Positions 1 through 5,814 of a stretch of DNA of 5,814 nucleotides are shown here, in pieces. Each line of letters starts with the position of its first letter. Position 1 is the stretch's first letter. Source of the DNA: Octopus sinensis. Its lineage: Eukaryota. The DNA lies in NCBI RefSeq assembly GCF_006345805.1, contig NW_021829852.1, positions 1-5,814 of the forward strand, read 5' to 3'. The notes beneath the pieces were generated by a model. It was not told where the DNA came from. It searched no databases and was given only the letters and a program-made list of their open reading frames with translations. The position numbers were made by a program, and so were the translations under genes.

Positions 1-387
1 CGTCTCTGGATCGTCTGCTTCGGTGGGTTCTGGTTTCTCGTCATTACAAGTTGCTGTTCGTCGCCATTGTGGTCGTGTCTGGACAGCGCTGCTTCGGTGG
101 GTTCTGGTTCCTCGTCAGTACAAGTTGCTGGTTCGTCGGCCATTGTGGTCGTTTCTGGATCGTCTGCTTCGGTGGGTTCTGGTTCCTCGTCAGTACAAGT
201 TGCTGGTTCGTCGGCCATTGTGGTCGTCTCTGGATCGTCTGCTTCGGTGGGTTCTGGTTTCTCGTCAGTACAAGTTGCTGGTTCGTCGGCCATTGTGGTG
301 ATGTCTGGACAGCCTGCTTCGGTGGGTTCTGGTTCCTCGTCAGTACAAGTTGCTGGTTCGTCGGCCACTGTGGTGGTCTCTCGAACG
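1..387 (-). repeat. Coding minisatellite, about 5 units of 75 bp, continuing beyond the window
   Basis: The anchor GCTTCGGTGG occurs at 17, 91, 166, 241 and 316, with the next anchor (first array) at 391. Spacings are 74,75,75,75,75. Confidence 0.96.
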
Positions 388-1132
388 TCTGCTTCGGTTG
401 GTTCGAACTCATTACCACAAAAGGCCACTCTGGTGGTCTCTGGAACGTCTGCTTCGGTTGGTTCGAACTCACCATCATCACAATCGGCCACTGTGGTGGT
501 CTCTGGAACGTCTGCTTCGGTTGGTTCGAACTCACCATCATCACAATCGGCCACTGTGGTGGTCTCTGGAACGTCTGCTTCGGTTGGTTCGAACTCATTA
601 CCACAAAAGGCCACTCTGGTGGTCTCTGGAACGTCTGCTTCGGTTGGTTCGAACTCACCATCATCACAATCGGCCACTGTGGTGGTCTCTGGAACGTCTG
701 CTTCGGTTGGTTCGAACTCACCATCATCACAATCGGCCACTGTGGTGGTCTCTGGAACGTCTGCTTCGGTTGGTTCGAACTCATTACCACAACGGGCCAC
801 TCTGGTGGTCTCTGGAACGTCTGCTTCGGTTGGTTCGAACTCACCATCATCACAATCGGCCACTGTGGTGGTCTCTGGAACGTCTGCTTCGGTTGGTTCG
901 AACTCACCATCATCACAATCGGCCACTGTGGTGGTCTCTGGAACGTCTGCTTCGGTTGGTTCGAACTCACCATCATCACAATCGGCCACTGTGGTGGTCT
1001 CTGGAACGTCTGCTTCGGTTGGATCGAGCTCACCATCACCACAATCGGCCACTGTGGTGGTCTCTGGCATAAGATCAACTTGTGTGGTCATCTGAGGGTC
1101 TGTTGTCCTTATAGTCGCTGCTTCAGTCTTGC
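1..1132 (-). CDS. Large coding exon, running off the window: secreted acidic Thr/Pro/Cys tandem-repeat (mucin-like) protein
   Basis: Acceptor aataacttttattttcAG|gc (AG at 1134-1133). The spliced codon T+GC is Cys, followed by KTEAATIRTTDPQMTTQVDLM, 11 units of PETTTVADCDDGEFEPTEADV or PETTRVAFCGNEFEPTEADV, then PETTTMADEPATCTDEEPEPTEADD units. No stop codon. Repeat lengths are multiples of 3 except for single-base indels below position ~88. This frame is absent from the ORF track. Confidence 0.85.
388..1068 (-). repeat. Coding minisatellite, 11 units of 63 or 60 bp with a 186-bp higher-order repeat
   Basis: The anchor GCTTCGGTT occurs at 391, 451, 514, 577, 637, 700, 763, 823, 886, 949 and 1012, giving spacings of 60,63,63,60,63,63,60,63,63,63. 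Confidence 0.97.
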
Positions 1133-1323
1133 CTGAAAATAAAAGTTATTTAAATATATAACGAAGAGTTATGTCGTAAGGAGAGAAAGTTTGGTGAGTA
1201 AGGGAAGAGCATCGCCCATGATAGTTTTCAAGCCCTCTGAGACTTTTGAGAAAAACAGGATTGTGTTATCTTTAGAAAATTTCATTTAAATGCTGCAACC
1301 GAGTAAAGTTCATTGAAGCCACA

Positions 1324-3664: not shown

Positions 3665-3878
3665 ACTGTGATACGCGATCCCTATTGATCGTTTTTTTTT
3701 TTTGTTTTTTCCCCCTTTTTTCCTTTTTTCTTCTTTCCTTTTTACGATCCCTTTTGATCGAAAACCTACCCCACCTTTTTTATTTTTTTTTTTTTTTTTC
3801 TCTCCCCAAAAAAGAAAAGCTCTACTTTGTAATCTGTCCCGTCTGTGTGCAGCCCTGTGTGGCTAATAAAGAAACATA
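3665..3878 (+). mobile_element. Candidate 5'-truncated LINE 3' UTR sharing its tail with SINE family B
   Basis: T-rich body with two CGATC-N6-GATCG hairpins. It ends in TGTCCCGTCTGTGTGCAGCCCTGTGTGGCTAATAAAGAAACATA, similar to the SINE B tail at 4081-4123, but has no SINE body upstream. The 5' boundary is uncertain. Confidence 0.55.
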
Positions 3879-3894
3879 ATTACGAATTATATAT

Positions 3895-4123
3895 GGCGAG
3901 CTGGCAGAGACGTTAGCACGCCGGGCGAAGTGCTTCGCGGTATTTCGTCCGTCGCTACGTTCTGAGTTCAAATTCCGCCGAGGTCGACTTTGCCTTTCAT
4001 CCTTTCGGGGTCGATAAATTAAGTACCAGTTACGCACTGGGGTCGATGTAATCGACTTAATCCGTTTGTCTGTCCTTGTTTGTCCCCTCTATGTTTAGCC
4101 CTTGTGGGTAATAAAGAAACATA
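3895..4123 (+). mobile_element. tRNA-derived SINE, family B, monomer
   Basis: Head GGCGAGCTGGCAGAGACGTTAG, B box GAGTTCAAATTCC at 3964-3976, central GTCGACTTTGCCTTTCATCCTTTCGGGGTCGATAAATTAAGTACC, and tail TAATAAAGAAACATA. Five more units occur in the window in reverse orientation. Confidence 0.9.
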
Positions 4124-4203
4124 TAAAAAAAGTAGGAGACATCTTGACGTCTTGTTCCCATTAATGTAAGATCTTTAGAAAAAATTGAACTTACAGTCCA
4201 AAA

Positions 4204-4605
4204 TATCATTTCTGTCATAGGCACAAGGCCAGACATTTTTGGGGAGGGGACTAGTCGATTACATCGACCCCAGAATTTCTCTGGTACTTAATTTATCGAC
4301 CCCCAAAGGATGAAAGGCAAATTCGACCCCGGCGTAATTTGAACTTAGAACGTAGCGACGGGTGAAATACCTATTTCTTTATTACCCACAAGGGGCTAAA
4401 CACAGAGGGGACAAACAAGGACAGACATAGGTATTAAGTCGATTACATCGACCCCAGTGCGTAACTGGTACTTAATTTATCGACCCCGAAAGGATGAAAG
4501 GCAAATTCGACCCCGGCGTAATTTGAACTTAGAACGTAGCGACGGGTGAAATACTGCTAAGCATTTCGTCAAGCGTGCTATCGACTCTGCCAGCTCGCCG
4601 CCGCC
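4204..4605 (-). mobile_element. SINE family B dimer: full unit (4605-4371) plus headless unit (4370-~4204) ending in a different tail
   Basis: Reverse complement of 3895-4123 with a 184-bp period. The second unit ends in CCCCTCCCCAAAAATGTCTGGCCTTGTGCCTATGACAGAAATGATA instead of the usual tail. Confidence 0.9.
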
Positions 4606-4611
4606 TTAGTA

Positions 4612-4880
4612 AAACAGGATTGGCTGAAGAAATGAAATGAAGAATAATTGAAAGAAGAAAGGAATGACCGACAGAACGAAAGGATTGAGAGAAAGTAAAG
4701 ATTGACATGAAGGAAGGACTGACAGAAAAGAAGGAAGGATAAGGAGGAAGTAGTAAGAGGAAGGAAGGACTGAAAAGAAAAAGGAGGACTGATTTAAAAG
4801 AAGGACGAGTCGAAAGGAACGACTAAAAAAAAAAATTAAGGACTGACAGACAGGAATGACTGAGGGAAAGGAAGGAAAAC
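4612..4880. repeat. Purine-rich low-complexity tract (degenerate GAAG/GACT repeats)
   Basis: Strong A/G bias with recurring GAAGGAAGGACTGA. On the transcribed strand it is a pyrimidine tract just downstream of the 4896 donor. Confidence 0.8.
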
Positions 4881-4896
4881 TGTGGTTATTACTTAC

Positions 4897-4948
4897 AAAA
4901 AGAGACAAGCATAAGGATTGCAAGGGTTGTAAATAGTTTCATAGCCAT
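4897..4948 (-). CDS. First coding exon (exon 4972-4897): signal peptide MAMKLFTTLAILMLVSF plus 1 nt
   Basis: Minus strand reads ttttattttacAG|aaagaaacaatttggTAAtccaagATGGCTATGAAACTATTTACAACCCTTGCAATCCTTATGCTTGTCTCTTTTT|GTAAGT. This gives an acceptor at 4974-4973, an in-frame upstream stop, a strong Kozak context (A-3, G+4), a basic residue plus hydrophobic core, and a consensus GTAAGT donor at 4896-4891. The 52 coding nt end in phase 1, matching the acceptor at 1132. Confidence 0.88.
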
Positions 4949-5181
4949 CTTGGATTACCAAATTGTTTCTTTCTGTAAAATAAAATCTTTTTATTATTTT
5001 CTTATGAAAGAGATAAAAAAAAACTTTGTGGTTATGGATACATTTATGCATTTTCCAAGACAGTATTTGCGTAAATAAAGACGACTGGAATTGGTTGAAA
5101 ATCGAAACTGGATCACGGGCTGTACTCAAGACGAGATAATCTTTTGGTCCTCGACAAGAGTCTGGACGTAGAAAAACTTAG

Positions 5182-5786
5182 TTTCTTATTTCTTTACGAC
5201 CTACAAGGGGATAAACACAGAAGGGACAAATAAGGACAGACAAACGGATTAAGTCGATTATATCGACCCCAGTACGTAACTGGGTTCTTATTTAATCGAC
5301 CCCGAAAGGATGAAAGGCAAAGTCGACCTCGGCGGAATTTGAACTCAGAACGTAGCGACAGACGAAATACCTATTTCTTTACTACCCACAAGGGGCTAAA
5401 CACAGAAGGGACAAACAAGGACAGACATAGGGTATAAGTCGATTACAATCGACCCCAGTGCGTAACTGGTACTTAATTTATCGACCCCGAAGGATGAAAG
5501 GCAAAGTCGACCTCGGGGGAATTTGAACTCAGAACGTAACGACAAACGAAATACCTATTTCTTTACTACCCACAAGGGGCTAAACACAGACGGGACAAAC
5601 AAGGACAGACAAACGGATTAAGTCGATTATATCGACCCCAGTGCGTAACTGGTACTTATTTAATCGACCCAGAAAGGATGAAAGGCAAAGTCGGCCTTGG
5701 CGGAATTTGAACTCAGAACGTAGCGGCAGACGAAATTCCGCTAAGCATTTTGTCTGGCGTGCAAACGTTTCTGCCAGCTCGCCGCC
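5182..5786 (-). mobile_element. SINE family B trimer: full unit 5786-5555, headless units 5554-5371 and 5370-~5182
   Basis: Three collinear units of about 184 bp, the same GAAATAC|CTATTTCTTT junction twice, and a single 5' head (CTGCCAGCTCGCCGCC at 5771-5786). Confidence 0.92.
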
Positions 5787-5814
5787 TTACTGTTAATTTC
5801 TTACAGTTCCAAAA

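Follow-up and report, generated by a model that had tools for sequence, protein, structure and literature searches.

Tandem SINE arrays joined at one base of the tRNA-like head, and a LINE inserted at the same base, in Octopus sinensis

SINE copies in the analysed window

The window, by which we mean the whole analysed stretch of 5,814 nucleotides of Octopus sinensis DNA, contains one 231-bp SINE as a monomer (3895–4119, plus strand), a dimer (4204–4600, minus strand) and a trimer (5187–5786, minus strand). The first trimer unit (5556–5786, minus strand) consists of a tRNA-like head (5740–5786), a body and a LINE-like tail and was taken as the reference: its positions in SINE sense are columns 1–231. 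The second unit (5372–5555, minus strand) is headless, begins at column 48 (GGTATTTC) and belongs to another subfamily. The third (5187–5371, minus strand) is headless as well, begins at the same column and has a tail that adjoins an AGAA-type flank. The trimer is bounded by a degenerate target-site duplication (minus strand), whose 5' copy (5793–5801) and 3' copy (5178–5186) are 8/9 alike.

The first dimer unit (4372–4600, minus strand) combines an old-type head (19T, 36A) with a young body and LINE-like tail, and its columns 48–97 are common to the second unit (4204–4371, minus strand), which is headless, begins at column 48 and closes in an older, different tail type. About seven private changes in columns 56–97 occur in both units; the two are alike in 111/118 positions, and in 97–106 of about 119 with the other units. 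Comparison of orthologous loci for monomer and dimer alleles, proposed in a preliminary description of this locus, was answered in part by a related species. The trimer site is empty there: a contig passes from 5176 into sequence like 5793–5812, with a single copy of the target and no SINE, so all three trimer units postdate the split, which is compatible with stacking as well as with whole-array copying. At the place matching the dimer, a SINE head is present, with an indel of about 10 bases. Judging from this head, the old-type head and the common columns 56–97, the dimer looks as if it had grown in place.

All three internal joints of the window are identical, as described before, in that the tail ...TAAAGAAATA passes into GGTATTTC in SINE sense; the positions given for them were one base off, and the cut points lie at 4371/4372, 5371/5372 and 5555/5556 (at unique sites, GAAATA is immediately followed by the duplication). 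The reported alternation of subfamilies in the trimer was borne out. Units 1 and 3 match in 172/184 positions and the middle unit matches them in 168/184 and 167/183, respectively, while it resembles the 4372–4554 unit of the dimer in 170/182.

A 14–15 bp direct repeat (4189–4203, 5800–5814) brackets the entire dimer-spacer-trimer block. The 3' end of a (TATC)n-targeting L1/Tx1-like LINE lies at 3800–3876 (plus strand), and its tail matches the SINE tail in 36/45 positions. The open frame at 1–1135 (minus strand) contains Thr/Asp/Glu-rich repeats of 21 and 25 residues with cysteine and is likely an exon of a mucin-like protein. Other tRNA-like repeats, by eye of different SINE families, occur at about 1330–1710 and 1810–1970.

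The SINE is short (231 bp), interspersed and of high copy number, its tail having 109,887 exact matches genome-wide. Box-like A and B motifs and an anticodon-like stem-loop are seen by eye in the head; ARAGORN predicted no tRNA and Rfam gave no tRNA match. Target-site duplications were found at 59/94 SINE loci at unique sites; the duplication test was passed by 33/56 monomers and by 24/38 and 14/22 arrays, with a null of 47/1,895. The 3' tail resembles the tails of four LINE groups (36–40 of 45). The OK, OR1 and OR2 SINEs of Octopus are candidate named families for it. OR2 is named in PMC4758252.

Most SINE loci were picked by the joint pattern, and frequencies are therefore given only from 100 heads, 260 kb of random DNA, 100 tails and the non-G joints. 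Overlapping duplicate loci, arrays within 60–110 bases of a locus edge and low-complexity flanks were left out of the counts, as were arrays of more than six units (age and haplotype tests) and five near-identical pairs.

Column 48 is an insertion site

The 21-mer of the tail|GGTATTTCGTC joint has 34,598 exact matches in the 2.72-Gb genome and its reversed control has none. Scattering of the junctions over the genome, which had been named as evidence against a targeted process, is thus not what we see. In the first 86 sequences, whose loci were mostly joint-chosen, 137/381 matches begin at column 48.

A pattern of the target copy followed by a new full head gave 88 exact matches, some of which are 65-bp head-only tandems. 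Nested full-length SINEs at this site lie behind a 15–17 bp target copy, and a matching copy was present at the 3' joint in 12/23 distinct loci (read from the first 30, by the rule of the script). Six of these 12 insertions are in heads and six in existing joints; at L176, a single private deletion is present in both target copies. We conclude that column 48 is a true insertion site. Insertion into existing joints explains A-B-A orders such as that of the window trimer.

At unique sites, the duplications of the SINE begin with GGTA-, AGAA- or TATA-like sequences, with A at position 4 in 47/58 and without a clear base bias upstream. Position 1 differs between the two duplication copies in 13/58 of these sites, which is only suggestive of overhang bases written into the joint. 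The search for nested copies in C-variant heads gave three matches at two loci, neither of them a clean nested insertion.

A second fixed joint (AGAAACGTTAG) was found at column 15, in the A-box region, with 1,614 + 243 exact matches. Units with this joint (L121–L150, L191–L220; window 5178–5187) are associated with the 219C tail and have a length of 217 bp. Head-only tandems of about 65–76 bp (columns 1–63 or 1–74), in up to nine copies, were seen at L154–L160, L167–L169 and L272 and apparently expanded from duplicated heads.

Growth of the arrays

The arrays have 1–10 units and their composition is not fixed across loci. Among 105 adjacent pairs, the 5' unit was less diverged in 68 and the 3' unit in 29; in the 57 pairs whose 3' unit has an older tail, the numbers were 43 and 12. 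None of nine diagnostic columns was linked between neighbours in 100 pairs. This age polarity and the independence of neighbouring markers indicate a sequential origin from many sources and exclude a single master multimer, so the amplification of one preformed dimer or trimer, which had been named as the other refuting result, does not hold.

In the long arrays, later neighbours have 77/218 rare variants in common in columns 167–231, and local duplication was added there. The earlier statement that simple local tandem duplication is insufficient agrees with the independent haplotypes of neighbours; such duplication does contribute in long arrays.

In several arrays, the first unit is truncated and the duplication adjoins the truncation (L072, L073 and L212, also L028 and L043), which means that these arrays were copied whole as one RNA. 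L072 lacks its head and has its duplication where it is truncated; the young-old dimers L212 and L043 are truncated in the head and have a duplication of the old family's type; and L073 is a truncated four-unit array lying within column 15 of an older SINE. The duplication test was passed by 2/4 and 0/6 headless arrays. Whole-array copying thus occurs, and is shown in few loci.

The heads of the arrays were of mixed age. Among 73 old-tailed arrays, a young GC head was present in 11, compared with 1/59 old monomers, and the old 63T head was present in 13, compared with 3/110 young-only loci. A T4 run before the last joint was present in 59 of 135 arrays and absent from 76. Head divergence did not correlate with that of the first or the last unit (rho 0.13 and 0.05, n 73). 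The concordance of unit 1 with the next unit was not significant at columns 61, 63 and 64, and only rare variants at columns 56, 59 and 62 were common to them.

A LINE confined to the same base

The site-specific LINE was searched with the 3' UTR of one copy as the query; 302 candidates were obtained, of which 40, all 100% alike, were scored. This young L1/Tx1-like LINE ends at column 48 of the SINE in 40/40 scored copies. Among its older relatives, of which six were fetched, the 3/3 with a readable tail end there as well. LINE 3' ends joined to the site, which the preliminary description had suggested looking for, do therefore exist. The target allele at column 48 was the C variant in 25/40 copies and G in 15/40.

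Full copies are about 5.35 kb long. The frames of L322 encode 282 aa (ORF1) and 1,133 aa (ORF2, of the APE-RT-zinc type), the latter with matches to PF03372, PF00078 and PF13966, that is, the APE endonuclease, the reverse transcriptase and the C-terminal zinc region. The best solved-structure matches of the endonuclease are L1-type (E 9e-10), and NCBIfam gave a sub-threshold reverse transcriptase match only. The full 1,133-aa frame is kept in several copies. The label Tx1-like is provisional and follows a resemblance to Tx1 elements.

A 16-bp target copy stands in front of the LINE in 32/32 copies with the standard start. What precedes this copy is a SINE head in most cases, a column-48 joint in one and a column-15-derived head in another. 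The host SINE heads differ from one another while the LINE copies are 98–100% alike, which indicates independent LINE insertions. The 5' and 3' target copies are the same at columns 48–54 in 32/32 and differ at column 61 in 14/32. The column-61 mismatches imply that part of the 5' target copy is RNA-derived and that 5' joining is homology-assisted. With RNA-derived letters of its own target at the 5' end, each LINE copy restores an insertion site upstream of itself (L314–L352).

One LINE sub-lineage, which is the older one, lies in C-variant sites in 12/12 copies and the remaining copies in 6/19; among copies without shared endonuclease changes, the split is 7/7 versus 6/19. On the LINE tree, from which 8/39 copies were left out as short or as having a changed start, the target-allele label clusters weakly (7 changes versus 10.2; 11 of 500 shuffles).

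The claim that a LINE endonuclease cuts the head of the SINE, so that new copies stack inside old ones, holds as far as the true target, the nested copies and the LINE at this place are concerned. It fails for that part of the arrays which was copied whole.

Choice of target by the SINE and the LINE

The SINE is far less site-specific than the LINE. Of 100 unselected SINE tails, GGTATT follows 36 (hand count), and most of the others stand at look-alikes of 4–5 bases; in 260 kb of random DNA, column-48 joints account for 10/28 tails. The two elements also differ in the allele that they use. Although 45/100 heads carry C at column 48 and 43/100 the combination 43G/48C (hand count), only about 0.6% of the SINE joints begin with C (10 in the first 100 of 2,357 non-G joints, versus 34,598 with G). 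The endonuclease of this LINE alone therefore does not explain the site choice of the SINE: the base itself is the same, but the specificity of the SINE is looser and its C sites stand at about 0.6% against 25/40 in the LINE.

Columns 43 and 48 co-vary, with 63 GC, 92 TG, 4 TC and 1 GG in 186 matches (L241 and L242 included). The 43G/48C variant replaces a loop wobble by a G–C pair and keeps the stem; SINE insertions avoid it, whereas the LINE favours it. GC heads were young monomers in 11/12 cases among 30 head-chosen loci, and GC units were not clearly younger (p 0.10).

The joint used is linked to the tail. Column 219 is T in 226/232 column-48 joints and C in 1,614/1,857 column-15 joints. 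In the 100 unselected tails, the next base is G after 57/82 T tails and after 1/18 C tails (hand count); the same contrast without GGTATT sites is 22/47 versus 0/17, so that the link persists at unique sites. The LINE tail carries C at column 219, which in the SINE is the variant associated with column 15. Target choice tracks the SINE tail variant and the LINE sub-lineage, which hints at steering by an RNA overhang. These links in cis could also fit different partner enzymes or different times.

Several sister LINE families have other targets. Their tails match the SINE tail in 40/45 positions, compared with 36/45 for the site-specific LINE, and their endonuclease identity is 71–75%. Copies of these families (L353–L366) have repeated flanks of their own, five of them in one shared flank and two and two in others, and they form a radiation of target-specific families. 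A stringent pairing of the SINE with the site-specific LINE was not found in tail closeness or in target spectrum, while the base itself is the same. By the closer tails of the sisters, the LINE that moves the SINE may be another than the site-specific one.

Proposed mechanism and alternatives

We consider it probable that the arrays are SINE chains joined at column 48 which grow by a two-step cycle of insertion and of whole copying of read-through RNA. In the first step, target priming would place a new SINE copy at column 48, either in an older copy or in a joint that is already there. In the second, read-through transcripts from the 5'-most head would likely be copied whole to new places. 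Arrays with one head and no seam could arise if an inner head drives Pol III read-through, if the cDNA joins the old head by homology, or if duplicated heads collapse. An enzyme of this LINE clade would give a nick preference, approximately N-R-W-A at the SINE sites. A read-through overhang would correspond to the flank of the source copy, pair with the primer strand and bias the lineage to sites of the source type; such pairing would act as a positive feedback favouring column 48 and also column 15. The LINE joints carry no direct sign of overhang bases, their first base being that of the target in 32/32. That this amounts to a heritable target memory encoded in RNA is a tentative reading, to which we give less than even chances: the overhang would return lineages to their sites without protein change, the SINE would be its own main target, a LINE living nowhere but in the head of its passenger would have been recruited, and the stem-preserving 43G/48C would have been selected as a head variant that escapes the SINE and not the LINE.

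It is rather unlikely that enzymes alone account for the arrays, that is, that columns 48 and 15 are the cutting sites of one or two LINE endonucleases directed at the SINE, each of which moves the tail-matched subfamily, with the copies stacking in place. Strict insertion of the LINE at column 48 (40/40 scored), nested SINE copies with age polarity, the window dimer with its old head and long shared tract, and several sister LINE families each with its own flank all agree with such enzymes. The same enzymes should not leave SINE tails at the site in just about 36/100, nor C in about 0.6% of SINE joints despite 45/100 C heads when the LINE has 25/40 C; moreover, the LINE tail has 219C, the column-15 variant of the SINE, and the headless arrays with adjoining duplications require whole-array copying. 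Still less probable is an origin from founders, in which a preference of 4–6 bases hits the SINE's own head at about the chance rate, read-through RNAs of many founders multiply the joints, and the LINE comes later as a separate parasite. In its favour, 1.3% of the GGTA words and 11% of the GGTATT words found in 260 kb of random DNA are SINE sites, there are few nested forms (88 exact matches versus 34,598 joints, with patterns that differ in length), many heads are of young type, and the sister LINEs with other targets are closer in tail. However, nested forms undercount events in place, as 5' joins can be seamless (the LINE 5' copies are partly RNA-derived, and the window dimer is another instance), the old 63T is kept in 13/73 old-tailed arrays, and the LINE and the SINE use the identical base.

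One or a few preformed dimer or trimer masters, or local tandem duplication with unequal exchange, would fit the long arrays L032 and L051, whose later units have private variants in common, and the arrays of the same shape in S. broughtonii, which were linked to unequal recombination (PMC11481361). Independent neighbour haplotypes, age polarity and the different tails inside one array make this origin very improbable for the arrays as a whole, as do the nested copies and the use of that base by the LINE; it is largely refuted for dimers and trimers, and is a contributor in arrays of more than about five units. The least credible route is a cut of the RNA at the anticodon-like loop, after which the reverse transcriptase jumps to the 3' end of another SINE RNA or rolls round a circle. 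Column 48 does lie immediately 3' of a loop of four bases that is carried by a long stem, and GAAATA is complementary to TATTTC. Nevertheless, unique DNA sites with duplications begin with the same motif, the column-15 joint is outside that loop, LINE copies occur with old heads and the 16-bp duplication, and neighbours differ in age; DNA target duplications at column 48 refute the RNA cut as the main route.

Relation to known systems

The SINEU and Tx1-Mar elements of crocodilians, and Tx1L in Tx1D, were described by Kojima 2015 (PMC4494074). There, too, a target-preferring Tx1-type LINE and a SINE have a common site inside another abundant repeat, tandem SINEs arise by sequential insertion, and co-transcription with the target was discussed as strengthening targeting. 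In those systems, a DNA transposon serves as the target and the target-site duplication lies between full units, whereas here the target is the tRNA-like head of the SINE itself, headless units meet at one base-exact joint and arrays are also copied anew as a whole. The hotspot at Alu position 133 (Levy 2009, PMC2836564) resembles column 48 as a sense self-insertion at one base, explained there by an L1 nick together with an RNA tail that pairs with the target. It differs in that the pairing is that of poly(A) at the linker, with a loose enzyme, and the parts of that paper at hand describe neither a base-confined LINE nor headless chains.

The closest arrays in shape are the TSD1-(SINE)n-TSD1 elements of the blood clam S. 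broughtonii (Martelossi 2024, PMC11481361), with a headed first unit, later units cut at the same head position, one outer duplication and mixed families. They comprise 64 elements in arrays of 4–15 with truncated internal tails, for which unequal recombination was suggested; in the octopus, the joints number in the tens of thousands, the tails are complete and the evidence for targeted insertion is direct. Squamate SINE satellites and the Dip/B1 multimers of jerboas (Vassetzky 2023, PMC10702118) likewise consist of head-to-tail SINE parts in frequent multimers. In the available portion of that work, they are ascribed to unequal recombination or are made up of full-length units, with no target-specific LINE.

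As regards overhang pairing, four matching bases prime L1 (PMC3649969) and a read-through end of four bases raises the efficiency of R2Ol (PMC6530143). Common to both is that efficiency rises when the RNA carries some bases of the downstream target, by which it anneals to the nicked DNA. Their target is fixed rDNA or poly(A), whereas the octopus overhang would be inherited and come from a variable flank.

The O. vulgaris repeat paper (PMC13282606) lists young L1-Tx1 and SINE families, and its first third does not mention this system. The accessible sections of PMC3531059, PMC4758252, PMC8967140 and PMC3747384 contain no description of these arrays. Our literature search brought up no account of such arrays or of a LINE restricted to the head of a SINE; Repbase, Dfam, supplements and subscription papers lay outside it and may hold one.

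Through such joints, a dispersed SINE can turn directly into tandem arrays. They also provide a mechanism of SINE module shuffling, in which heads, bodies and tails of different families recombine at one fixed joint. A LINE that lands at one base of a SINE head and keeps full frames is a natural test of endonuclease versus RNA–DNA pairing in targeting, which matters for gene insertion based on retrotransposons. Repeat annotation would split such a SINE family into many apparent consensus sequences.

Other LINE ends

The LINE end of the window (3800–3876) was also considered as the targeting partner and was rejected: almost all of 30 loci continue into (TATC)n-like repeats and none into the SINE site. 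The pattern of this family's 3' end followed by GGTATTTCG gave 10 matches, none of which was shown to be a LINE. Further L1/Tx1-like 3' ends, at L178, L203 and L231, are followed by (ATT)n, a flank of the type that older SINE tails have, and LINEs with this flank are possible partners of the older-tail SINE families.
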